From a bacterium BMS3Abin14 (GTDB taxonomy: Bacteria > BMS3Abin14): DNA of 63,186 bases. This document shows positions 110-50,359 of this stretch, piece by piece; position 1 is the first letter of the stretch, and every line of letters begins with the position of its first letter. The position numbers and the translations under genes are program-made. The notes beneath the pieces are model-generated. The model searched no databases. It worked only from the letters and a program-made list of their open reading frames with translations, and was not told the origin of the DNA. Location of the stretch: contig BDTG01000013.1 of the NCBI GenBank assembly GCA_002897695.1, positions 1 to 63,186 of the forward strand, in the 5' to 3' direction.

Positions 110-480
110 TTCTACCTCCGGCAACAGTGTTTATTCAATAATATCAATATGTTACCGAAATAGTGCATGATAAAACAAAGGAAAATACAAACAAAAAACA
201 CACAATTTGCTAATATTATCAACAGGTTAGAGTTTACGGATGAACACTAGATATCATATCTTCCATCTCACAAGGAGTAGCCAATTGTAACGTCTCTATT
301 TGTTCAAGTTCTTCGGTTGTGAGGAAGGGAATGATGTTCATGCTTGTTATGATATAGCCAGGTGAGGGTGAACGCGAGGTGCGCAACCCGACTTCATTAC
401 GCCCACGGGATTTCTTCCGTCTTCGTTCTTTGAATTTCACTGTGACAAATCGGCGTGGCAAATTCAAATAAAAACGAGAC
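110..480. other. AT-rich (~35 % GC) non-coding tract, compositionally foreign to the ~60 % GC background
   Basis: Visible drop in GC content. Only short low-complexity ORFs are present. Confidence 0.5.
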
Positions 481-681
481 CTTAGAAGGTTGTATTTGCG
501 TCCATCGTCGCTCGCTTGAAATCCCAGACTAGGGGACAGAACGAGCTATGGGGGACACCCTTTGCTCAAAATACCTCTGTGGCCTGCCACCCGAAGCCGG
601 AAATGCCTTGATTTATATGGTTTCTGTTCGTGAGAGGTGTCCGTCTTCGCCGCGGCTCAAAACCCGGGGTAGGAAAGGTGA

Positions 682-975
682 TTAATCCCTGCTTTTGCTC
701 AGGCTTCTTAACGTTGCTATATCACCATCGATCAGGACTTCCTTTTTTCGACGGGACCAGTTCTTGAGGTGGTGTTCGCGGTCGATGGCTGTTTGTTCGT
801 CTTCGTACTTTTCTGAATATACCAACCTGACGGGCAAGTGTGCAGCCGTATGTCTGGATGCGAATCCACATCGGTGCCAGAGTAGTCGGTTCTTCAGGTT
901 GCTGGTGTGGCCAACGTAAAGAGAGCAATCTGAACATCTCAGGATGTAGACGTAGAATGAATTTGAAGGTGGCAT
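682..975 (-). CDS. GIY-YIG nuclease family protein (UPF0213/YhbQ-like). An alternative upstream start at 1026 is possible.
   Basis: Motif FYVYILRCSDCSLYVGHTSNLKNRLLWH...YSEKYEDEQTAIDREHHLKNW is a textbook GIY-YIG core. The long 161-aa ORF has an implausible N-terminal extension. Confidence 0.7.
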   Translation of the reverse strand: MPPSNSFYVYILRCSDCSLYVGHTSNLKNRLLWHRCGFASRHTAAHLPVRLVYSEKYEDEQTAIDREHHLKNWSRRKKEVLIDGDIATLRSLSKSRD

Positions 976-1169
976 GCAAAGAGTTGAGCAAGGATGGTGC
1001 CAAGAGGGAGTGAAGCCTTTTTGCATGTTGAACAAAACAACCCAGTGCCCCTCGATGCAACGCACATGCTTTCGGCGCTTTGCTCCTTTCGACAGGCTCA
1101 AGGCAGGCGGGACAACTCGACGCAGCTCGTGTCGCGCGGCAACCGCAACTTGGCCTGCCACGAGCAAAT

Positions 1170-1206
1170 AAAAAGGCCTACCTCGTTCCGAGGTGGCCTT
1201 TTTATG
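1170..1206. terminator. Bidirectional rho-independent terminator hairpin (AGGCCTACCTCG-ttc-CGAGGTGGCCT) flanked by A/T tracts, immediately 3' of tRNA-Ala
   Basis: Perfect 11-12 bp stem with T-runs on both strands. Confidence 0.6.
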
Positions 1207-1213
1207 CGTCGAG

Positions 1214-1288
1214 TGGTGGAGACGATGGGATTTGAACCCACGACCCCCTACATGCGAAGCAGGTGCTCTCCCGCTGAGCTACGTCCCC
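1214..1288 (-). tRNA. tRNA-Ala (anticodon CGC)
   Basis: Reverse complement folds as GGGGACG / D-arm GCTCAGCGGGAGAGC / anticodon stem CCTGC-TTCGCAT-GTAGG / T-arm GGTTCAAATCC / CGTCTCC-A-CCA. The G3:U70 alanine identity pair is present and CCA is encoded. Confidence 0.9.
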
Positions 1289-1334
1289 ACGATTTAAAAC
1301 AGGAAAACGAAGATAGCCTAAAAACCCGGGTCTG

Positions 1335-1360
1335 GCAAGACCGGGGGTAAAAGCACTCTC
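1335..1360 (-). terminator. Hairpin CCGGGTCTggcaAGACCGGG followed on the minus strand by a T-tract; candidate terminator for the minus-strand transcript
   Basis: Stem-loop plus TTTTT on the minus strand. Confidence 0.5.
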
Positions 1361-1382
1361 CACACCCAACCGCTCCTTACCA

Positions 1383-1475
1383 GGAGCGGGATTTCATTGA
1401 AATCAGCAGCATCTTGGGTGAGGGGATGCGACCTTCTTCGCGTCCTTTGCGCCTTTAGCAAGTCGGGTATTTTGT
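1383..1475. repeat. Copy A of a ~90-bp conserved non-coding element (CAGGAGCGGGATTTCaTTGAAATC ... TGAGGGGATGC ... CTTTGCG)
   Basis: About 75 % identical to 35627-35715. Reading frames are not conserved between the copies, so it is non-coding. Confidence 0.5.
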
Positions 1476-1590
1476 TTGACGAGCGGGCGAGAGACAGATC
1501 TCAGATTTTGGTTCCAGATCTATCCGCGAAAATCCGCGTGAATCAGCGGCTAAAATACCTTTGATCGGCGGGATCGAAGGGCACCGTTCG

Positions 1591-1854
1591 CTAATCGTTC
1601 CCGAGTTTCTCCAGCTTGTGGCAGAAGTAGCATTTGGACTTGCCCTCCGGGGCCTGGCCGTCCGGCAGGACGTGGTTCTCGGGGAGGGTCTCCGGGGGAT
1701 GGCATGAAAAACAGACAGCGTAGTCTTTGTGCTTGCCGATGTGGTCGCTGTCCCTGGGCATCTTGGGGGTGGTCTCCTCCGGGGCTATGGATAAGAAGAC
1801 AAGGATGGCGGCACACACGGCCAGGAACACGATGGTCTGCCAATGCTTTTTCAT
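1591..1854 (-). CDS. Small membrane-anchored diheme c-type cytochrome (two CxxCH motifs: CFSCH, CYFCH)
   Basis: N-terminal signal/anchor helix and two CxxCH heme-binding motifs. Paralogous to 23113-23355. Confidence 0.7.
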   Translation of the reverse strand: MKKHWQTIVFLAVCAAILVFLSIAPEETTPKMPRDSDHIGKHKDYAVCFSCHPPETLPENHVLPDGQAPEGKSKCYFCHKLEKLGND

Positions 1855-2402
1855 GGTTTGATTTCTACACTATTTGCCGGGGTTGAGGCAATAACGAGTT
1901 TGGACAACCCTTTTCCTCTCGCCCGCTTCCTGTTCAAGTTCGTTGGAGTCTGGGGCGGATAATCATCATGGGCCCTTTCTAACAGGGATTAAGGGGATAG
2001 AGGGGATAAACTCCCGATTAGTTATCCCTCCATGACCGATGCCTGTCCTGAGCTTAGTCGAAGGGTGACTCCAGTGAGCCACGCTAAAGCGTGACGAACG
2101 GGTGGTGAAATAATCTGCTTTGTCGCTGTGAGCCACTCCTTCACCCCCACCTCTGTCCTCCCCCCTCGAGGGGGAGGAAGGTTTAAGATTTTATCCGTTT
2201 CAGATGTTTGTTCTACCCCCTTCATCCCTGTTAAATCTAGGCTTCCGCCTTCGTTACCCCCCTGTTACATTCCGTGTGCTAAACTCTTTCAGTATGATTG
2301 TTCAATATTCGCGGCCCTCCGCGGCAGCGCCTGAGATTGGCGCTCTTTGCGGCCCTCCGCGATAAGGCTTGTAACTATTTGGACCACTAAAGGAGGTTAA
2401 CG

Positions 2403-3326
2403 ATGCAAATAGCTATGATTGGTCTCGGGAGAATGGGCATGAACATGGCCCGGCGTCTTATGGGGGGCGGCCACACCATCGTCGCCTACGACATGTCCAC
2501 AAAAACCATAAAGGAAATCGAGGGTGAGGGCGCCGAGGGGGCCCATTCCCTTCGGGAGGTGGTAGAGAAACTCAAAGCTCCGAGGGCCGTCTGGATAATG
2601 CTCCCGGCCGGCAAGCCGGTTGACGACACCATCACCGAGCTCAAGGGCCTGCTTTCCGAGGGGGACGTTATTATCGACGGCGGCAACAGCTACTACAAGG
2701 ACGACATCCGCCACGCCGAGGACCTGAAAACCGTCGGGATATCATACCTGGACGCGGGGGTTTCGGGAGGTATATGGGGCATCAAGATCGGCTACTGCCT
2801 CATGGTCGGCGGCCCCGAGGACAGCTACAAGCGGCTGGAGCCCGCATTCAAAACCCTCGCCCCGGAGGAAGGCTACCTGTACTGCGGAGAAACAGGGGCG
2901 GGGCACTTCGTCAAGATGGTCCATAACGGCATCGAATACGCCATGATGCAGGCCTACGGCGAGGGTTTCGATATCCTCGAAGGGTCGCAATATGGTCCGT
3001 CTCTCGACTACTCGCAGCTTTCCCACCTGTGGAATCAGGGAAGCGTCATCAGATCCTGGCTCCTGGAACTGGCCGAGTCCGCCTTTGCGGATGACTCGAG
3101 GCTCGATGCCATAAAAGGATACGTGGAGGACTCTGGAGAGGGACGCTGGACGATCCAGCAGGCGGTGGAGACGGGCGTACCCGCACCGGTCATCACCCTT
3201 TCCCTGTTTCAGCGATTCCGTTCAAGAGAGGAAGACGGCTTCTCCGACAAGGTCATCGCTGCCCTGCGCAAGGAGTTCGGGGGACATGCCGTGGTCTCGT
3301 CTTCCAGGAAGGGGAAAAAGAGATGA
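2403..3326 (+). CDS. gnd: 6-phosphogluconate dehydrogenase, decarboxylating (short ~300-aa form)
   Basis: N-terminal Rossmann motif MIGLGRMGxNMARRL and conserved GxxxKMVHNGIEYxxMQ segment. RBS AAAGGAGG is present. Confidence 0.9.
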   Translation: MQIAMIGLGRMGMNMARRLMGGGHTIVAYDMSTKTIKEIEGEGAEGAHSLREVVEKLKAPRAVWIMLPAGKPVDDTITELKGLLSEGDVIIDGGNSYYKDDIRHAEDLKTVGISYLDAGVSGGIWGIKIGYCLMVGGPEDSYKRLEPAFKTLAPEEGYLYCGETGAGHFVKMVHNGIEYAMMQAYGEGFDILEGSQYGPSLDYSQLSHLWNQGSVIRSWLLELAESAFADDSRLDAIKGYVEDSGEGRWTIQQAVETGVPAPVITLSLFQRFRSREEDGFSDKVIAALRKEFGGHAVVSSSRKGKKR

Positions 3327-4906
3327 GCGAGAATGCGGGGCACAGGGCGCGGGACGAAGGGCTTGAAAACCTCCTCGAGGGACACGCGACCACAGAGACA
3401 GCGCCCACCGGCGACAACGTCCTCGACGCTCCCCTCGACCCCTGCACCATCGTCATCTTCGGCGCTACGGGTGACCTGACCACCAGGAAGCTCATTCCAT
3501 CCCTCCTCAGTCTCCTGCGGAAGGGGGGGATGCCCGAAAGGTTCCGGATCGTGGGCTGCGGAAGAAAGGAGATGGACGACGAAAAGTTCCGCGCCATGCT
3601 CAGGAAATCGGCGGAGGAGAGCGGCAACGACCTCGATGGCTGGGAGGATTTCGCGTCAAAGCTCCATTACCTGCCGCTGACCATGGACTCGCTGGAGTCC
3701 TTCCGAAACCTTGCCCGATTTCTCGCAGAATTGGACCGGGCGGCGGATACCGGGGGCAACAGGATCTTCTACCTGGCGCTGCCCATGTTCCTATACCGGA
3801 TTGTCGCCGGCCTGCTCGGCGAGTCCGGCCTGTCGGCGGAGAATACGGAGATAAACGGCTGGTCCAGGATTGTCGTGGAAAAACCGTACGGAAGCGACCG
3901 GAAATCGGCAGCTGAACTCGACCGCACCATCCACGCCGCCTTTGTCGAGAGGCAGGTCTACCGCATCGATCACTATCTGGCCAAGGAGACTGTCCAGAAC
4001 ATCCTCATGTTCCGCTTCGCCAACACGATCTTCGAGCCGCTGTGGAACAGAAACTACATCGACCACGTGGACATCATCGCCGCAGAAACCCTCGGGGTGG
4101 AAAAGAGGGCTGGCTACTACGAAAGCTCCGGGATACTCAGGGACATGTTCCAGAACCACATGATGCAGATCCTGGCACTCACGGCCATGGAGCCGCCCTC
4201 TACATTTTCGACGGGACCGTTTCACGACGAGAAGGTCAAGGTCTTCCGCTCGCTGCGGCCGTTCCCCCTGGACGACGCCTACGGCAACCTGGTCCTGGGA
4301 CAGTATGGGCCGGGCGAAGTGGATGGAAAGCCGGCGGCTGGCTATCTCGACGAGGAGGGGGTGGCGGCAGGTTCTCTCACGCCGACGTTTGCCATGATGA
4401 GGATATTCATAGACAACTGGCGCTGGCAGGGAGTCCCGTTTTACGTCACCTCGGGCAAAAGGCTGGGGGCCAAGCTGACGGAGATCATGATCCGGTTCAA
4501 GGATGTCCCCATCACGATGTTCCGGGAAATCCTCGGAAATCCTGTTTCCGCGAACGTGCTGACCCTCGGGATCCAGCCCCAGGAGAAGATATCCCTGTCC
4601 TTCCAGACAAAAACTCCCGGGGACAAAATCCTCTTACGCCCGGTTACCATGAATTTTGACTTTCTTCAGGGATACTCGGGGCCGGTCCTCGCAGCCTACG
4701 AAAAAGCCCTGCTGGACTGCATGCAGGGCGAGAAGATGCTTTTCCTGAGGGAGGACGAGATCGACCTGACCTGGACCTACCTCGACCCGATCATCAACGA
4801 ATGCGAAGTCTGTTCGGACCGGGCGGACCACCTGAAAGGTTACGAAGCGGGAACTTGGGGTCCCCCGGAGGCGGTGGCGTTAAAAAAGCTCATGCACGAA
4901 AGCTGA
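3323..4906 (+). CDS. zwf: Glucose-6-phosphate 1-dehydrogenase
   Basis: Motifs IFGATGDLTxRKLIPSL, RIDHYLAKE and MFQNHMMQILALTAMEPP. ATGA overlap with the gnd stop indicates coupling. Confidence 0.9.
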   Translation: MSENAGHRARDEGLENLLEGHATTETAPTGDNVLDAPLDPCTIVIFGATGDLTTRKLIPSLLSLLRKGGMPERFRIVGCGRKEMDDEKFRAMLRKSAEESGNDLDGWEDFASKLHYLPLTMDSLESFRNLARFLAELDRAADTGGNRIFYLALPMFLYRIVAGLLGESGLSAENTEINGWSRIVVEKPYGSDRKSAAELDRTIHAAFVERQVYRIDHYLAKETVQNILMFRFANTIFEPLWNRNYIDHVDIIAAETLGVEKRAGYYESSGILRDMFQNHMMQILALTAMEPPSTFSTGPFHDEKVKVFRSLRPFPLDDAYGNLVLGQYGPGEVDGKPAAGYLDEEGVAAGSLTPTFAMMRIFIDNWRWQGVPFYVTSGKRLGAKLTEIMIRFKDVPITMFREILGNPVSANVLTLGIQPQEKISLSFQTKTPGDKILLRPVTMNFDFLQGYSGPVLAAYEKALLDCMQGEKMLFLREDEIDLTWTYLDPIINECEVCSDRADHLKGYEAGTWGPPEAVALKKLMHES

Positions 4907-4954
4907 TGGACTCGCAAAAAGTTTATGGCTCGCGCCCGTTGAGGGGCATCCAAA

Positions 4955-5743
4955 TCACTCCATATACTGCACGAGGAGCTGTGAGATCAGCAGGTCTTCG
5001 TCGCCGACGCGGGCGGCTGTGTGTGCCAGAAATTCCCGCATTTCGAGGCTGATCTTCCCCGGTTCAAGCGCCCCGTAGAGGGCCTGGAACCTCTGTTTTT
5101 CCTCCTCCGTGGCGGCTTCGACAAGCCGCTCCCACAATGTCTCGTACGCTATGGCAGGCCCTCTTTCGCCCGGCTTCGCCGCCAGCGCCTCCTCCAACAT
5201 GATGTCGAAGAGGAACCACGTCTGCCCCCTCTTTTTGCCCTGCATGGGATCGGCGAGGCTCCTGTAGCGTCTGTATGATCGCTCCATTACAACGTACTTG
5301 TAGCGCCTGTAAAGCCCCAGGAGGATCTCGTCCTCCACGATGCCAGGGATGACCGAGAGTACGTCCATCTCGCCGGTCACTTCCGCGATGTCCTCGCCGT
5401 CCGGAAGGGGAACCCTGCCGGGGGTCCCCTCCGCTCCGACCTCTTCAAGGTCCTTCTGAACATTCCCATCGTCCACTTCAAGGCTATCCCATTCGGTGGA
5501 GGGGATTTTCATGCGGTCGATGAGGGTTGTATGCTCCATGGCCCTGACCCCCATCTCCTCAGCGAGCATCCTGTGCCTGATGTATAATAGCCCCCTCCTC
5601 CCATTGAATCTGAAAACGTCGGTATTATCCGAGGTTTTATCGTCGTCGCCCAAGGCATCGAGGATTTCATGGAGATGGTCATGTTCCGCGACCAGATGCT
5701 GGTCGGAAAAATATTTGGGGTGAACGCTGAAAATCCTGGTCAT
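4955..5743 (-). CDS. Pyrimidine-dimer DNA glycosylase (T4 endonuclease V/DenV-like) N-terminal domain with a ~120-aa C-terminal extension of unknown function
   Basis: N-terminus MTRIFSVHPKYFSDQHLVAEHDHL parallels T4 endoV [24 protein letters not shown]. Assigned from memory. Confidence 0.6.
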   Translation of the reverse strand: MTRIFSVHPKYFSDQHLVAEHDHLHEILDALGDDDKTSDNTDVFRFNGRRGLLYIRHRMLAEEMGVRAMEHTTLIDRMKIPSTEWDSLEVDDGNVQKDLEEVGAEGTPGRVPLPDGEDIAEVTGEMDVLSVIPGIVEDEILLGLYRRYKYVVMERSYRRYRSLADPMQGKKRGQTWFLFDIMLEEALAAKPGERGPAIAYETLWERLVEAATEEEKQRFQALYGALEPGKISLEMREFLAHTAARVGDEDLLISQLLVQYME

Positions 5744-6529
5744 TTACTCGTCTCCTTCGCCCTGCCCCTTGCCGAGAAACCCTTTGAAAGCTCTCAGGAG
5801 ATCCATGGGGATAGGGAAGATGGTGGTGGAATTATTTTCCGTCGCGATTTCCCTCAAGGTCTGAAGATATCTCAGTTGAAGGGCCTGTTCGTTGCCGGAC
5901 ATGATTTTCGCCGCTTCGGTCAGTTTCGTGGCCGACTGGAACTCGCCCTCCGCGGCAATGATCTTCGCCCGTCTTTCCCGTTCCGCCTCGGCCTGCTTTG
6001 CCATCGCCCGCTGCATCTCCTGCGGCAGGTCCACGTGCTTTATCTCCACGTTCGTCACCTTGATCCCCCACGGGTCCGTCTGGGAATCGAGAATCCCCTG
6101 CAGATCGTGGTTGATCTTATCCCGCTCGGAAAGGAGGTCGTCCAACTCCACCTGACCCAGAATGCTCCTTAAGGTCGTCTGTGCGAGCTGGCTGGTAGCG
6201 TAGAAGAAATCTTCCACCTCGACAACCGCCCTGGAGGGATCCATCACCCGGAAATACACGACGGCGTTTACCTTGACCGACACGTTGTCCCTCGTGATGA
6301 TATCCTGGGGCGGCACGTCCATCACTATCAGCCTGAGGCTGATCCGCACCATCTTCTCCATGCCGGGGATGATGTAGATGAGGCCGGGGCCGCGGGCTTT
6401 GACCAGCCTCCCCATGAAGAAGACGACCCCCCTCTCGTACTCCCTGAGGATCTTGATGCCCGAGACGATGAGGAAAAGAACGATGACCACCGCGCCGGTG
6501 ACAATGGGGTTAAAAGAAAATAAAAACAT
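5744..6529 (-). CDS. SPFH/band-7 (stomatin-like, QmcA/YbbK-type) membrane protein
   Basis: N-terminal TM helix, PHB domain and C-terminal coiled-coil ([20 protein letters not shown]). Confidence 0.85.
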
Positions 6530-6542
6530 GGCAAATCCTCCT

Positions 6543-8006
6543 TTATTGCTCTGTGTTCACCCGTTTGACTTTCAGGGACAGCCCATCTGCCTCTGTCACC
6601 TTGACCTTCTCCCCTGACTTGATAGTTTCAGTTGAGACCGCTGACCAGATCTCTCCGTGAATCATTATCTTTCCCTCCGGGGCCAGGTCGGTGCCGGCAA
6701 CCCCCACCTCTCCGATGAGCCCCTCGATCCCGGTTGTAACCTTTCTCATTCTTATCCTGACGGCAAATCCAAGTAACACCACGAAGATGAGTACGATGAT
6801 ACCTGTCATCCCGAAGATCAGGGACAGGGAAACACGGTAGTACGGATCGGCGGAGTTGAAAAACATCAGGCTACCCAACACCAGGGACAGGATGCCGCCA
6901 ACCGTCAGCATTCCGAAAGAAACCACCTTTACCTCCAGGACAAAAAGCACCAGCGCGAACAGGATAAGAAGAACGCCCGCATAGTTGACGGGCAGGAGCT
7001 GAAAAGAAAAAAAGGCAAGGATTATGGAAATCCCGCCAAGGACGCCCGGCAGGATAACGCCCGGGTTGACCAGTTCGAAGAAGATACCGAAGATCCCGAG
7101 CAGCATGAGGAGATATGCGACGTTGGGGTCGGTGATAACAGCCAGGATCCTTCTCCGGGTGCCCATGGGCCTATCCTCAATACGTGCGCCGGAGAGGGCT
7201 ATAATACGCTTTCCGCCCGACACCGTCACCTCCATCCCCTCAATTCCCTTCAACAGTGCGTCCACGTCCGGAGCTATGAAATCCACTACCCCTTCCTTAA
7301 CGGCCTCCGTCTCCGTCGAGGAGATGCTTTCCCGGACAGCCCGCTCGGCCCACTCGACGTTGCGGCCGTTTTTAGCGGCTATTGAACGTATAAAGGCCAC
7401 GGTGTCGTTGAGAATTTTGGTCGCCATGATATCGCCCTCCGGGGGCGGCGAAGCTGCCTTTCCCTTTCCATCTTTCCCGGATTCCTTCTCCCCCTCTTTC
7501 TTCTTCCCGCCGAAAAATCCCCCTCCCCCCACTGTGACAGGGTGGGCCGCCCCGATAGTAGTCCCCGGGGCCATGACCGCAATGGGAGCCGCAAGGGTAA
7601 TGAAAACTCCTGCCGATGCGGCCCTCGCCCCCGAAGGGGCAACGTAGACCGCCACCGGAACGGGCGAAGCGAGAATGGCCTTGACGATCTGCCGCATGGA
7701 TGACATGAGTCCACCGGGGGTGTCCAGCTGAAGGATCAAAAGCCCGGCTTTGTCCTTTTCCGCTTTCACGAGCTGTTCTACGATGTAGTTTGCGGTAATC
7801 GGGTTGATGGATCCGTCGACGAAAATACGAACGACCAGGGGCGGGCTCTTATCCGCATCCTGCCCGGTAAGGACAACATCACTGTCGGCCATAAGACCGG
7901 ACGGGCGCTGTCCATCGGGAAACCAGCCGGTGTCTGGAAGAGCCAGAAAAAAGCCCAGAATGGCTAAAAAGACGATTACACGCATGCAAATTCTTCTCAT
8001 GCTCAA
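6543..8006 (-). CDS. NfeD-family membrane-bound ClpP-class serine protease (stomatin operon partner)
   Basis: Signal peptide, ClpP-like domain, multi-TM segment and C-terminal OB domain. Canonically paired with the adjacent SPFH gene. Confidence 0.85.
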
Positions 8007-9322
8007 GACATCCTCGCATTGAGACCAGACACCGGAACGGCAAGCCCGTGATAATGATCCACAAGATCGGGCCCCATGCGTCTGAACGGGATCAGCACCA
8101 GGGAATCCATTTTTCCGTTTTTTTCCACCGGGGCCTTGCGATGTGTATAGATTACCACATCCGCCAACTCTTTGGCTTCCTCCGGAGAAAGCTCAGCTGG
8201 AAGGGTTTTAACGGACGTCCGGCAGCTGTAAGGAATGTTCTCCGCGGGAAAATCGGCCTCGTAGTATCGCCTCGATATATTGTACAGAAGGTGCGGGGAA
8301 CGGACTCCGAAGGCCGGTATCACTGAACTGCCTCCATCGGCATTCCACCGCCAGAAGGGCAGAAAGATCGTCTGTTTCTGTCTAACCATCACTTCCGTCC
8401 CCGCCCAGAGGCACTTTCTTTCCCGAAGTCTGGGCCCTCCCGATTCCCATCCTCGTCCGCAGTTACAGCAGAACCTTATCACCGCGGTCGTACCCGTCTG
8501 CAGATCACCGTCGCACTCGGGGCAGATAAGCGGAAGCAGTTTGAGACGGTTCTCAACCGGTGTCTGTGACTCTCCGATACCCAGATTATTTAGAAGGGTC
8601 TCCATTTCCATGTGCCCGATCTGACGTACCAGATCACCGCTGACGGCATCCAGAAGGAGCAGCCTGATCCTTTCCCCCTCCCGGACCTCCACGAGAAAAA
8701 GGGGGAAATAGAGTATGGAGTACCGCTCCCGGAGAAGGAAGGTCTTCTCCTCGATGACAAACAGGTCGGATACATCGAACCCCTCGGTGGTGTTGTGCAC
8801 GACTCTTTCGTGAAATTTCTCCCTGCTTAACTGCATAGGCAAAAAAGGGATCCCTCCGGCGTTTTCCATCGTGGCCAGAAAAAGGTGCAGGGTCTGCGCT
8901 CTGACCCCCGGAGAGAAGAGGCCAGTGGACAGGTCTGTGTGCCCTGGCCTCATCAGGTCGAAATTTCTGGTCTTGAGCTCCTCCACTGTCTCACCCCGCC
9001 GAACCTCGTCCCCCCTCTTCTCACCTGTCACCCAATGCATGGCCTGGCCTCTTGTCCTGTAGAAAGGGTAGTAAAAAGGGATAACCGACCTGATAAGAGG
9101 CGGTTTCCAGTGGTTTTGCCTGGCGATGGCAGTGATCTCAGGTGGGGTGTCCTTGACCCTGATCTTGGGCTTGATGAGGAAGTTCAGCCATGCTGAACGG
9201 CCGCCCACCACCATGAGGGAGGCACCGCAAAAGCGACACTTTGTGCCTGTGGCCTCCTGGTCGAAGACCGCTTCGCCCCCGCATTGTGGGCATTGGTGAC
9301 TGACGTAACAGGTTTTTTTCAC
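8003..9322 (-). CDS. Zinc-ribbon-containing protein of unknown function (N-terminal CPQCG..CRFCG, internal CPECDG..CCNCG), possibly a YdjG/YdjH-like partner of the SPFH protein
   Basis: Two Cx2C..Cx2C ribbons. Translationally coupled between the SPFH-ZnR gene and nfeD. Confidence 0.5.
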   Translation of the reverse strand: MKKTCYVSHQCPQCGGEAVFDQEATGTKCRFCGASLMVVGGRSAWLNFLIKPKIRVKDTPPEITAIARQNHWKPPLIRSVIPFYYPFYRTRGQAMHWVTGEKRGDEVRRGETVEELKTRNFDLMRPGHTDLSTGLFSPGVRAQTLHLFLATMENAGGIPFLPMQLSREKFHERVVHNTTEGFDVSDLFVIEEKTFLLRERYSILYFPLFLVEVREGERIRLLLLDAVSGDLVRQIGHMEMETLLNNLGIGESQTPVENRLKLLPLICPECDGDLQTGTTAVIRFCCNCGRGWESGGPRLRERKCLWAGTEVMVRQKQTIFLPFWRWNADGGSSVIPAFGVRSPHLLYNISRRYYEADFPAENIPYSCRTSVKTLPAELSPEEAKELADVVIYTHRKAPVEKNGKMDSLVLIPFRRMGPDLVDHYHGLAVPVSGLNARMS

Positions 9323-9339
9323 GTATCAGATCGCGGAGG

Positions 9340-10467
9340 TTACTGAATCTTCTCGCCGCAATTCAGACAGAAATGAGCCCCCTCCGGGGCCTTCTTCCCG
9401 CAATTGGGGCATTTCGTCTCCACCTTCTTTACCTCCTGCCCACACCGGAAACAGAATTTTGCGTCGACGGGAAGATCTGTTTGACATCGTGGACAGATCT
9501 GCCCTTTAACAACAGGCGTCCCACATCGGGAGCAGAACCTGGCATCATCAGGCACCTCCCCATGGCACCGGGGGCATGGATAACCTTTAACCGTCCCCTT
9601 CTTACCTCCCTCACTCAGGGTCCCTTTAAGAAAAGCCGGGATCATCATTCCAAGCCCCGCGCCCAGCCCCATACCCATGCCTGACTCAGCGCCTGACGTC
9701 GCCCCGTCCGCCCCTGTCTTGGCGGCATCGCCCATGAACTGCGCCGCCTTGAATCGAAGATAGTCGCTCTCGCCGACAGCCCGCATTCCTCCCCGTTCAT
9801 CGATGATTTTCTGAACATCATCAGGCGGAGTAATGGCACGTATGATGAGATCCCTGAGTTCGATACCGTACTTGAGAAACTCGTCACGGACCCTGGCCTT
9901 GGCGGCGGCTCCCAGTTCATCGTAGACCTGCGGCAGGTTAAGGAGGGTGTCAAGGTTTTCCCCAAGCAGATCGTTGATCCTCGAGACGATGATCCCTCTC
10001 AGAAAATCCGATATCTCATCGGTAGTGTAGATGCCCTGCGTCCCGGCGACTACGTTCACAAAAAGCATGGGCTGCAGAATCCTGATGGTAAAATTTCCGT
10101 TGCCCCGAAGCCGAACCATGCCTAATTCACTGTCCCGGAAAGCCACGGGATCCCTCGTACCCCAGTTCAGGTTTGTGAAGGTCTTCATGGCCACGAAATA
10201 GACGGCCACCCTGAAGGGACTCCGAAAGCCGAAGGGGAGGCTCAGCGCCTTGGTCAGAAGAGGGAGATTCTGGGAAGCAAGGGTATGCCTCCCCGGGCCA
10301 AGCACGTCGAGAGCACGGCCATCCCGAAAAAACACAGCGGCCTGATTCTCATTGACCACCAACTGCGCCCCGAATTTGATCTCACCGGTTCCCTCAGGAG
10401 GAACACGGTGCACCATCTCCTCGCCGGTTTCATCAATCCATTCCAGGACCTCTAAAAATTCACTCAT
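9340..10467 (-). CDS. SPFH-domain protein of the Band_7_1/YdjI type with three C-terminal zinc-ribbon repeats
   Basis: N-terminal SPFH-like core (EIKFGAQLVVNENQAAVFFRDG...). C-terminus carries three Cx2C-x10-14-Cx2C ribbons. Confidence 0.7.
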   Translation of the reverse strand: MSEFLEVLEWIDETGEEMVHRVPPEGTGEIKFGAQLVVNENQAAVFFRDGRALDVLGPGRHTLASQNLPLLTKALSLPFGFRSPFRVAVYFVAMKTFTNLNWGTRDPVAFRDSELGMVRLRGNGNFTIRILQPMLFVNVVAGTQGIYTTDEISDFLRGIIVSRINDLLGENLDTLLNLPQVYDELGAAAKARVRDEFLKYGIELRDLIIRAITPPDDVQKIIDERGGMRAVGESDYLRFKAAQFMGDAAKTGADGATSGAESGMGMGLGAGLGMMIPAFLKGTLSEGGKKGTVKGYPCPRCHGEVPDDARFCSRCGTPVVKGQICPRCQTDLPVDAKFCFRCGQEVKKVETKCPNCGKKAPEGAHFCLNCGEKIQ

Positions 10468-11772: not shown

Positions 11773-12021
11773 CAGACCCCTATAACCAATGCAAAGGTTT
11801 AGGAAACCGCGTATGGGGAAATGAAGGGCCCCAGAGTTTATTAGTTCCTGGTTCCTAGTGCCTGGTGTAGTTCAAGTTCAAACCAGGCAGTTCCTGGAAA
11901 CCGGGTACTGGTTACTGCTGTAATAAAAGGTTATTTTTTGTAATATTTTTCTTGATCCCGCCTTGCTTTAAGGATAACCTCCGTACTATCCTCACCGACA
12001 TCCTTCGCAAGGGAGGCTCAT

Positions 12022-27621: not shown

Positions 27622-27639
27622 CCCAGGACACAAAAAAAG

Positions 27640-27678
27640 ACCCCGGGACATTTAATGTCCCGGGGTCTTCAGGTGGCC
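27640..27678. terminator. Perfect 13-bp-stem hairpin GACCCCGGGACAT-ttaa-ATGTCCCGGGGTC between convergent genes
   Basis: Inverted repeat with A/T flanks on both strands. Confidence 0.65.
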
Positions 27679-27692
27679 TGCTCTAACGTGGC

Positions 27693-27893
27693 TTACAGAG
27701 CGGTGACGTTATTGGCCTGAGGTCCCTTGGGGCCGTCTACAACCTCAAAGCTCACTTTCTGGCCCTCATTCAGGGTCTTGAAGCCGTCACCCTGAATTGC
27801 CGAGAAATGGACGAAAACGTCTGGGCCTTCGGCCTGCTCGATGAACCCGAAACCCTTGGACTCGTTAAACCACTTTACAGTTCCTTCTGCCAT
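27693..27893 (-). CDS. cspA: Cold-shock protein (CspA family)
   Basis: [50 protein letters not shown] carries the RNP1/RNP2 motifs. A long 5' UTR is typical. Confidence 0.9.
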
Positions 27894-28233
27894 TTTACTT
27901 CTCCTTCTTTCTCTGTTTTTTTGCAGCTTGCCGGAACAGCCCTGGAACAAATCAAAAAAGGCCCTGAACGTAAAGCCCAAGACCATTATTCGATCAAATG
28001 TTCTCCATAAAGCTCTTCCGTACTACAAAACTGGTTTTAACCGGGAGCAACTCTCACCGGCGAGGTATAGATACTCTAAAGGAAAGGGAGTTGCAAGCTT
28101 TTTTTTTCGGTGATTATCCCCGGGAAATGGTCAGAACCTGAAACCCCTTTGCCATTTTAAAAAAATTGGGTATTTTCCAATCCCTGGGCCGATAATAATA
28201 TCGTCCAACTTTTTCAAAGGGGTATGGAAAACC

Positions 28234-29010
28234 ATGAATAATAAGTTGAACCTCCTTAAGACAAGTATCGTTTCACTTGGAATCCTGGCCACAGCCTTTG
28301 CTTCCCCGAGTGGGGTCCCCAACGCCGCGGCGGCCTCCGACACCATTTCCTTCGGGGTGCTTCCCGTCATTCAGGCACTTCCCCTGTTCGTCGCATATGA
28401 GAAGGGATACTTTTCCGACGAGGGCCTGAATGTGGAATTAATAACCTTCAAGTCCGGTCTTGAAAAGGACGCCGCCATGGCCGCCCGAAGTACCCAGGGA
28501 TACTTCGGGGACATGCTCACGTCTCTTATTCTTGACGCCAACCAGACCCCTTCGAGGATGGTTGCCACCCTCTACAACACCACTGGTGACCAGCGCATGT
28601 TCGCCATTCTTGCCGCGCCCGGCACAGGTAAACCGTCCCTGGCAGAGCTTGCCGAAGCTGGAATAGCGGGCAGCTCCAACACCGTTATCGAGTACCTTAC
28701 CCGTAAACTCCTTCAGGCCGAAGCGCCGGGGGCAAAGCTCAACCTCATCGAGGCGAAGAGTATTCCGTCCCGGGTTCCCATGCTTCTTTCCGGAAGGGTT
28801 CCCGGGGCCGTTCTCCCCGAACCACTCGTGACCTTCGTTGAGAAGAAGGGTGCCACGGTGGTTGCGGACGACCGTGGAAAGGGGATCGCGCCTCCGTCAG
28901 TTCCGGATCGCCGTCTTGTGATGGATTCCTATAATTGGCTCCGGAACAAGGGGATACTCAAATCCGAACTGACCTGGCCGGAGATGGTCCAGGAGGGATT
29001 ACTGGATTGA
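28234..29010 (+). CDS. ABC-transporter substrate-binding protein (NMT1/SsuA/TauA-like); orphan and possibly 3'-truncated
   Basis: Signal peptide and NMT1-like SBP sequence. No cognate permease or ATPase gene nearby. Short at 258 aa. Confidence 0.65.
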   Translation: MNNKLNLLKTSIVSLGILATAFASPSGVPNAAAASDTISFGVLPVIQALPLFVAYEKGYFSDEGLNVELITFKSGLEKDAAMAARSTQGYFGDMLTSLILDANQTPSRMVATLYNTTGDQRMFAILAAPGTGKPSLAELAEAGIAGSSNTVIEYLTRKLLQAEAPGAKLNLIEAKSIPSRVPMLLSGRVPGAVLPEPLVTFVEKKGATVVADDRGKGIAPPSVPDRRLVMDSYNWLRNKGILKSELTWPEMVQEGLLD

Positions 29011-29754: not shown

Positions 29755-29930
29755 AACGTCCAACGTCCAAGGTCCAATGCCCAACGGGGGAAAGCAGTAT
29801 CGAAGTAACGAGGTATCGAAGTGTCGAGGTGTTGGCGGCGGGCGATGGGCAATAGGCGATGGGCTATAGGCTATAGGCAATCATGACTCAGCTCACGATG
29901 ACAAATTACCCTCTGGACTCTGGACTCCAG
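29755..29930. repeat. Intergenic array of short tandem repeats: (AaCGTCC)x4, (GTaTCGAr)x4, (GGCGATGGG/CTATAGG)n, (CTCTGGA)x2
   Basis: Direct reading. Several different 7-8-nt units in tandem with no spacers. Confidence 0.6.
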
Positions 29931-43266: not shown

Positions 43267-43373
43267 ATCTTTTAGCTTCCGCTGCGGCTCCTACAGTCGC
43301 CCCACGGGATTGCTTCGCGTAGAGTCGGCTCGCAATGATTTCGTTTGATTCGCCGCTATTGTACATCGGGCTT

Positions 43374-43476
43374 CCCACACGCCCATACGCCCCTACTCCC
43401 ACACACCCATACTCCCTTATTGCCCTTTCTCCGTGTCTGTTCTTCCCCTCTGGACTCTGGACTCTGGACTCTCTGC
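43374..43476. repeat. Intergenic short-tandem-repeat array: CCCAyAC-type 7-8-mers x5, then (CTCTGGA)x3
   Basis: Direct reading. Shares the CTCTGGA unit with 29911-29930 and 52174-52203. Confidence 0.6.
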
Positions 43477-50006: not shown

Positions 50007-50359
50007 CAGGTTGTCATCGCATTTCACTCAGGGCTTTCCCCTTCGCTGAAGCTATGGGGGACAAGCGCAATGACACCTCTCTCGTATTCGCGTTCCTTTC
50101 TGTCCAGAAAACAGGGTGTTGGAAACCAGGATCAGGAAGCGTCATCCACAAGAAACCCTGGTTCCGGACCGTTGACCAATATTCAGTTTTCCATTATTAG
50201 TAGGATTGAAAAAATCCATTGATGACCTTTTAAGGTGATGGAGTTCACCATGAAACTGCCCTGAGGGGATAATGACTCCTGACAAGATCGCATGCCGGCA
50301 GGGCCGTGGGATCGGCCGTCGAGAGGCTCTGCCGGACATAGACCTGGAGGAGTCGAAAT

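Follow-up and report, generated by a model that had tools for sequence, protein, structure and literature searches.

CTCTGGA repeat arrays in bacterium BMS3Abin14 as probable slippage-prone heptanucleotide microsatellites, one of them read into an acyltransferase gene

Why does a single heptamer, CTCTGGA, stand head to tail in three separate spacers of one bacterial contig? We examined this question in a stretch of 63,186 nucleotides (contig BDTG01000013.1, assembly GCA_002897695.1; hereafter the window) from bacterium BMS3Abin14, which belongs to a candidate phylum and comes from sub-seafloor sulphide deposits. A preliminary description of the window had taken the recurrence of the unit as a hint of sequence-specific function. 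We consider it likely that the arrays are heptanucleotide microsatellites of the kind described as short tandemly repeated repetitive (STRR) sequences or long simple-sequence repeats (LSSR), mostly neutral and changing in length by slippage or unequal exchange, and that one stop-free array was captured into the open reading frame (ORF) of an acyltransferase. We found no sign of a dedicated function of the CTCTGGA arrays.

Tandem arrays in three spacers and their length among strains

A gene map with Pfam assignments placed the three sites in the gene context that the preliminary description had given. At site 1, a UbiA-like and a GGDEF gene converge. Site 2 separates two minus-strand genes, running from the stop codon of the CcsA-like one (43491) to the start of the ResB-like one, and its CTCTGGA array is more than 180 nt away from the resB start. 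Site 3 lies between convergent genes for a dynamin-like GTPase and an acyltransferase, and its array overlaps the final 11 codons of the latter. Apart from this overlap with a gene end, all arrays of the window are in spacers. The arrays of the three sites are as follows.

29911-29927, plus strand: CTCTGGA array of site 1, 17 nt, 2.4 copies, 26 nt from the stop codon of the GGDEF gene
43448-43472, plus strand: CTCTGGA array of site 2, 25 nt, 3.6 copies
52173-52202, plus strand: CTCTGGA array of site 3, 30 nt, 4.3 copies, read on the minus strand within the acyltransferase ORF
29755-29786, plus strand: degenerate heptamer array (AACGTCC)~4.6 of site 1, period 7 with 84% matches in Tandem Repeats Finder; units in order AACGTCC AACGTCC AAGGTCC AATGCCC AACG, beginning 3 nt past the UbiA-like stop codon
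29797-29832, plus strand: octamer array GTATCGAA GTAACGAG GTATCGAA GTGTCGAG of site 1, 8-nt units with a 16-nt super-period
29841-29882, plus strand: heptamer array of site 1 with six units, GGCGATG GGCAATA GGCGATG GGCTATA GGCTATA GGCAATC
43373-43420, plus strand: octamer array of site 2 with CCCATACG-like units, period 8

Arrays were called by sequence inspection, Tandem Repeats Finder, and an exact-run script, and all were concordant on perfect period-7 CTCTGGA runs at the three sites. The three loci first reported were thus borne out, with end coordinates that had been set 1 to 4 nt too far. It was also correct that other short arrays adjoin sites 1 and 2, but the CCCATACG-like units at site 2, originally given as heptamers, repeat every 8 nt and not every 7.

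The arrays exceed what chance would supply. The dimer CTCTGGACTCTGGA (a 14-mer, allowing up to 2 mismatches) occurred 6 times in the window against 0.52 expected, and none of 100 shuffles reached 6. The single heptamer was not over-represented (17 occurrences versus 11.2 expected), and 9 of the 17 fell inside arrays. Since the heptamer itself is not abundant, the phenomenon is one of tandem repetition and not of a common word. Period 7 accounted for 5 of the 8 exact arrays of period 5 to 9 in the window, which covers only 63 kb of the genome, and 3 of these 5 have CTCTGGA as their unit. A further repeat-rich spacer, between divergent genes at 11843-11920, holds degenerate (GTTCCTG)~3, (GTTCAA)2, and (GGTWACT)2, so repeat-rich spacers are not limited to the three CTCTGGA sites. 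Tandem arrays of periods 7 and 8 are plentiful in this genome in general.

Independent assemblies of the same loci were found by exact-protein look-ups. They came from several samples (SPAdes, MEGAHIT, and Logan assemblies), and those compared at sites 1 and 2 were 99.2 to 100% identical to the window outside the arrays. The same arrays stood in the same places, with the same flanks, in 5 to 10 independent assemblies. A scan of Joint Genome Institute (JGI) metagenomes for the same copy-number comparison returned distant relatives only, at most 63% identical.

At site 1, one 7-nt unit of the AACGTCC-type array was absent from L197, and the array at 29841-29882 had two distinct one-unit (7-nt) deletion alleles, one in L194 and L196 and the other in L198 and L202; these 7-nt losses map to 29765, 29855, and 29868. 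The octamer array at 29797-29832 was constant in every assembly covering it, its first 8 nt being absent from L202, and (CTCTGGA)2.4 was unchanged in 10 assemblies. At site 2, the CTCTGGA array had 2.6 copies in L205, L207, and L209 versus 3.6 in the window, L204, L206, and L208 (7 nt fewer, at 43454). The three assemblies with the shorter allele also have one single-nucleotide polymorphism in common. The site-2 octamer array was 24 nt (3 units) shorter in L186 and L204, at 43405, and this was the sole indel across 15.5 kb aligned to the window.

Together, there were 5 independent unit-step events in ∼190 nt of array sequence, against only three 1-nt indels in the aligned flanks, whose length (on the order of 10 kb) is a rough estimate. 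Over these flanks the arrays held every indel longer than 1 nt, and near-identical, co-occurring strains differed almost only there, by steps that kept the unit register. This makes the arrays indel hotspots, the behaviour typical of microsatellites. The preliminary description had called the loci slippage-prone and had proposed comparing array length across strains; that comparison revealed whole-unit differences at sites 1 and 2 between strains that are otherwise nearly identical. Such length changes would arise from strand slippage in replication or repair, or from unequal exchange between units, and would be near neutral in spacers, so that arrays could persist and drift there. For work with metagenome-assembled genomes (MAGs), arrays of this kind are indel hotspots, contig breakers, and convenient strain markers.

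Two further observations concern the compared assemblies. In L206, positions 2640-2735, the ENA contig ends in an Illumina adapter (AGATCGGAAGAGCGTCGTGTAGGGAAAGAGTGT...) followed by poly-A, which is an assembly artefact of that record and not of the window. At window position 28886, inside an NMT1-like binding-protein gene (28234-29010), 189 nt are missing in frame relative to four assemblies of the same strain group, giving a protein of 258 rather than 321 residues. Two copies of the direct repeat TCGCGCCT (8 nt) flank the gap, which is either a genuine deletion between these short repeats or a collapse during assembly.

The array read into the acyltransferase gene

At site 3 the repeat is translated, as had been claimed from the sequence.

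52167-52202, minus strand: C-terminal extension VQSPESRVQSG plus stop codon of the acyltransferase (ORF 52167-53033), a translation of the array

The acyltransferase ORF runs through the array, and its protein ends ..GEWGNVVQSPESRVQSG. It was further claimed that a change in copy number would alter the protein, and simulated changes agree: gain or loss of 1 or 2 units lengthened the product by 46 to 223 antisense-derived residues, and 3 units kept the frame. The tail lies outside the Pfam domain and was found only in close, array-bearing relatives. Distant homologues (54 to 64% identical) are mostly 255 to 270 residues long, and the four that we aligned end at or within ∼5 residues of ..EEWG.

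Eight proteins from several samples, belonging to the window lineage and to a lineage ∼85% identical in protein, have a tail of identical length, and the 4.3-copy array is identical in the window, L186, and L187 to L189. L190, a sister of the 85% lineage, has a degenerate (GTTCAAC)~4.5 at this position, with a TAA stop codon just before it, and encodes a 257-residue protein without the tail. In L191, the array and spacer were lost by deletion (∼70 nt of alignment), and the convergent genes now overlap. The tailless homologues, the TAA before the array in L190, and the constant tail length together mark the tail as derived, an addition to the protein that the repeat encodes.

Because CTCTGGA is free of stop codons in all six frames, an array next to the end of a gene can in principle be absorbed into a reading frame. 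At site 3 the ancestral stop codon, still TAA in L190, would have been lost, after which the acyltransferase would read through the array and gain its 11-residue tail. Changes other than multiples of three units would then be selected against, and the array would be frozen at 4.3 copies. We infer that such selection keeps the site-3 array constant while intergenic arrays drift; the site-2 array varies in length but is intergenic. The locus illustrates protein lengthening by a stop-free array after loss of the original stop codon, and the strain data are direct evidence from natural populations that arrays change by whole units while the one absorbed into a reading frame stays fixed.

The sequence around the site-3 array is mosaic between lineages.

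L187 5110-5230, L190 2030-2150, and L186 5250-5560: mosaic patches, orthologous to window 52100-52500

L187 and L190 are 94 to 100% identical per 50-column block over 3.8 kb outside a few stretches, namely, the patatin-acyltransferase junction, the alignment end, and a patch of ∼95 nt that includes the array. One 50-column block, the core of this patch, shows 100% identity between L187 and the window lineage, two lineages that are ∼17% diverged elsewhere. L186 is in essence the window strain but carries a reciprocal-looking, L187-like patch of ∼300 nt (52200-52500) that ends at the array. The simplest reading of these alignments would be short-patch exchange between co-resident lineages, and they suggest that such recombination may be frequent around site 3.

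The heptamer across genomes and among known repeats

We scanned genomes, one per species, for (CTCTGGA)3 and took phyla from the depositors' labels. The repeat matched at least 120 loci, whose labels named at least 13 phyla, among them Acidobacteriota, Planctomycetota, Verrucomicrobiota, Chloroflexota, Cyanobacteria, Nitrospirota, Bacteroidota, Pseudomonadota, and Actinomycetota; isolates as well as a complete chromosome (L096) were represented. In 828 kb of these CTCTGGA-bearing loci, period-7 arrays (277, of which 137 had other units) outnumbered those of period 6 (33) and period 8 (14). By comparison, only 1 period-7 array was present in 272 kb of sequence from organisms related to that of the window, with dynamin-like proteins no more than 63% identical. 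This was an intergenic (AGTTTCT)3 plus a variant unit, 12 nt past a stop codon, at positions 8400-8427 of L122, the closest relative found in JGI metagenomes (dynamin-like protein 63% identical). In the loci covered from more distant relatives, we saw no period-7 array.

Array context was judged with a self-trained codon-position gene caller, which is crude; calls based on ORFs were unreliable because ORFs read through the stop-free repeat. By these calls, about two-thirds of the arrays among the matches listed were outside ORF interiors, although 81% of the sequence was coding. The 52 clean intergenic CTCTGGA arrays were distributed among gene pairs oriented (−,−) (16), (+,+) (15), convergent (13), and divergent (8), showing no preference for orientation or gene boundary, which argues against a strand-specific RNA or promoter role. 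Some arrays lay within genes: in-frame (TCCAGAG)n was found inside UvrA-like, UvrD-like, MetH, polyketide synthase, and CobN genes of other phyla (L001, L014, L048, L068, and L077). Genic arrays add SPESRVQ-type inserts, and this reading outnumbered LWTLDSG 44 to 22 among the matches listed. In MetH the insert separates Pfam domains, and in the UvrA-like protein it directly follows one. The length of genic arrays gave no clear signal of 21-nt periodicity in a block-insertion test.

In a collection of viral contigs, we counted (unit)3 for the target, for four composition-matched unrelated controls, and for two units of site 1 in the window.

CTCTGGA, target: 5
four composition-matched unrelated control units: 0, 2, 9, and 9
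AACGTCC, from the site-1 array of the window: 11
CCTTGGA, chosen as a control but a variant unit of the site-1 array of the window: 16

A special pan-bacterial CTCTGGA element was rejected on these counts, as control heptamers were about as frequent, and CTCTGGA is probably not special across bacteria. General selection for stop-free units was likewise rejected: 34 of 73 unrelated arrays were stop free on both strands, compared to 50 to 57% expected, which is no enrichment. One viral contig, L154 (IMGVR_UViG_3300035688_000092), carries 13 period-7 arrays of related units in 14 kb (positions 400-9730), some of them in inverted pairs that could form long hairpins, as where (AGAGTCC)n(AGAGTCG)n precedes (CTCTGGA)n.

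A full-text literature search for the CTCTGGA repeat sequence returned no mention from bacteria and only unrelated eukaryotic primers. The closest known class is LSSR, with units of 5 to 11 nt. According to PMC4679880 and PMC4692102, which summarise Mrazek, Guo and Shah 2007, heptanucleotides outnumber all other categories of LSSR in the genomes of many non-pathogens, with polymerase slippage as the proposed origin. Like the LSSR described there, the arrays here consist of 7-nt units head to tail in few copies, mostly intergenic in a non-pathogen, with period 7 dominant and a phylogenetically scattered distribution. The features that define the class were all present: a 5- to 11-nt unit repeated head to tail beyond chance, an excess of period 7, unit-step polymorphism, and a mainly non-coding position. 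Those surveys include neither the CTCTGGA unit nor the BMS3Abin14 host, and unit-step polymorphism is shown here directly between natural strains. The arrays add to a known class of heptanucleotide microsatellites one further unit and one further lineage, a candidate phylum represented solely by metagenomes.

STRR sequences are similar in that several heptamer families occur in a genome, often side by side in one spacer, as at site 1. Mazel and colleagues are said to have described, in 1990, the units CCCCA(A/G)T, TT(G/T)GTCA, and CAACAGT in heterocystous cyanobacteria. The units here (CTCTGGA, AACGTCC, and GGCTATA) are different, the host is not a cyanobacterium, and the arrays are shorter (2 to 5 copies); by unit sequence and host, they therefore fall outside STRR in the strict sense. 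Three heptanucleotides are also mentioned for Calothrix PCC7601 (PMC4692102).

The TAACTGA repeats of marine Beggiatoaceae (PMC4679880) resemble the CTCTGGA arrays in having one preferred heptamer at many intergenic sites, with 2 to 6 copies, in occurring also in unrelated phyla, and in a total word frequency that is uncorrelated with the repeats. Unlike CTCTGGA, which shows no preference for orientation or start codons and is stop free in six frames, TAACTGA arrays include stop codons and are mostly found in forward orientation immediately before start codons. None of our three sites has a start-codon array of that type, given the distance of site 2 from resB and the position of sites 1 and 3 between gene ends. 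GGGAATC of Xanthomonas and GGGGA(C/T)T of Nostoc (PMC4692102) are likewise intergenic heptamer arrays, mostly of ∼4 units with occasional inverted pairs, but they are G rich and quadruplex capable, whereas CTCTGGA has no G-run or excess predicted structure.

Two other systems are comparable in part. The 2 hmw promoters of Haemophilus influenzae offer an intergenic heptamer array whose copy number varies among strains, as at site 2. In that host-adapted pathogen, the copy number of the 7-bp repeats at hmw1A and hmw2A sets adhesin expression. Two of the three CTCTGGA sites, in contrast, are not upstream of any gene. The term 7-bp repeats is used for the hmw1A/hmw2A arrays in PMC8262952. Borg tandem repeats, according to the abstract of PMC9879509, add disordered regions to proteins. 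Like them, the translated DNA repeats here add a short hydrophilic stretch (the VQSPESRVQSG tail and SPESRVQ inserts), but the Borg repeats described in that abstract lie within genes, and with the 7-nt unit here only three-unit changes keep the frame.

Explanations weighed

The sequence-specific functions first envisaged (a protein-binding array, a terminator, a contingency switch) found no support in our searches. An Rfam scan of the window gave 4 matches, none at the arrays. All three spacers, folded on the strands that matter and compared with dinucleotide shuffles, gave z-scores of 0.90, −0.02, 1.04, and −0.89, i.e., no excess structure, and with scores of −0.9 to +1.0 and no Rfam match at the arrays, we rejected a structured RNA. 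A site-1 hairpin between (AACGTCC)n and (CTCTGGA)n was present in the minus-strand minimum-free-energy fold, yet it was no better than in shuffles. Scans for terminator- or promoter-like consensus had no overlap with the CTCTGGA arrays, and an intrinsic terminator (a G+C-rich hairpin and T-run) was rejected there; one weak terminator consensus match, at 29768-29754 on the minus strand, falls in the AACGTCC array. No inverted repeats were found at any of the three sites.

The preliminary description was right to set CRISPR and repetitive extragenic palindromic (REP) elements aside. The units are 7 nt long and contiguous, without spacers, whereas CRISPR have repeats of 23 to 50 nt with unique spacers; REP elements and the related bacterial interspersed mosaic elements (BIME) are palindromic, and here inverted repeats are missing and folding equals that of shuffles. 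Its argument from the recurring heptamer to a sequence-specific function found no support: the arrays are not conserved as such in relatives, and control heptamers are about as frequent in the viral collection.

Several points weigh against the microsatellite reading. Only the products expected of slippage were seen, not slippage itself, and the evidence on this genome comes from a 63-kb window. At site 3, an array-bearing stretch of ∼87 nt is 100% identical between lineages ∼17% diverged elsewhere, which calls for either constraint or a short-patch exchange in the recent past. Of the period-7 arrays in other genomes that lie more than 300 nt from a CTCTGGA array, 15 of 73 were within one mismatch of CTCTGGA, versus ∼2.5% expected. 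In the window, 3 of the 5 exact period-7 arrays share both unit and strand, for which we estimate a probability on the order of 1e-5 under random choice among ∼1,170 heptamer classes. This within-genome enrichment means that some unit-specific process or selection exists.

Candidate causes for the occurrence of CTCTGGA three times in 23 kb are seeding or copying between sites and a weak sequence-dependent bias in expansion. A bolder idea, to which we give little credence, is that in heptamer-rich genomes one unit family spreads to new sites by a sequence-specific process rather than by independent slippage accidents. The family here might, with the same slender prospect, comprise CTCTGGA and its one-step neighbours CTTTGGA, CCTTGGA, and CGTTGGA, the last being the reverse complement of AACGTCC. 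The spreading could involve a factor that binds the unit, templated insertion, or array cassettes passed between lineages by short-patch exchange. If the idea were true, arrays would also seed in-frame SPESRVQ inserts in housekeeping genes. The recurrence of one unit within a genome and the site-3 short-patch exchange are the only points that could lead somewhere new. The puzzle of single-unit recurrence has also been noted for TAACTGA (PMC4679880) and concerns the whole class.

We regard it as unlikely that the arrays are multivalent cis-regulatory sites, bound by a DNA- or RNA-binding factor, whose copy number tunes adjacent genes. Each CTCTGGA unit contains the GGA triplet that is the core of CsrA-type sites, the unit recurs at three loci, and related units are enriched within CTCTGGA-bearing genomes. 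The array between ccsA and resB differs in copy number among strains, and the literature offers proposed precedents in TAACTGA of Beggiatoaceae and in heptamer repeats upstream of recF and recO in Nostoc, for which regulatory effects have been suggested; for the 7-bp promoter repeats of Haemophilus hmw1A, such tuning has been described. Against this, neither orientation nor position relative to genes was favoured in the 52 intergenic cases. Two of the three window sites sit where convergent genes end, with no gene to which they would be upstream, and arrays also occur inside coding regions. Site 3 has a different heptamer in a sister lineage and none in another lineage, no promoter consensus lies nearby, and control heptamers are about equally common.

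Somewhat more doubtful is the notion that the arrays are recombination-prone or horizontally exchanged mini-cassettes, spread by short-patch homologous exchange and marking its junctions. The ∼95-nt L187/L190 patch with its core identical to the diverged window lineage, the L186 patch ending at the array, and the deletion in L191 all fit such a role. They come from a single locus, though, where the identical stretch hides the exact position of the junctions. The flanks of the three CTCTGGA arrays did not align with one another, so that no mobile unit larger than the repeat is shared and a larger mobile element was rejected. Sites 1 and 2 showed in-register unit indels only, with no patch replacement. 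The recombination signal proposed in the preliminary description keeps one anecdotal lead, the site-3 mosaic.

It is very improbable that site 3 is a phase-variable contingency locus switching C-terminal forms of the acyltransferase. Its array does lie inside an ORF end where 1- or 2-unit changes alter the product drastically, and neighbouring arrays slip, but no length variants were seen among the 8 tail-bearing proteins from several samples, which lends no support to the earlier suggestion of contingency loci. The two shorter alleles are a deletion and a different array with its own stop codon, not unit changes, and the tail is absent from homologues and outside the Pfam domain. We give practically no weight to assembly artefacts of low-complexity reads or chance copies of a common heptamer: long arrays do end contigs in some MAGs (e.g., L021, L054, L095, and L108), but an artefact is ruled out by the independent assemblies, made with different assemblers, and by arrays in isolate genomes including the complete chromosome L096, and chance is opposed by the dimer excess and by a single word that is not enriched outside arrays.

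Two of the Rfam matches in the window concern other genes. A fluoride riboswitch (RF01734; 44.8 bits versus a gathering score of 34) at 50225-50288 on the plus strand is directly upstream of the dynamin-like GTPase gene (50360-52144) that borders site 3. This is an atypical gene for a fluoride response, and a 43-residue ORF was called across the junction of riboswitch and gene. A full-length match to the cspA thermoregulator (95.4 bits) at 27635-27980 on the minus strand covers a cold-shock protein gene and its leader.

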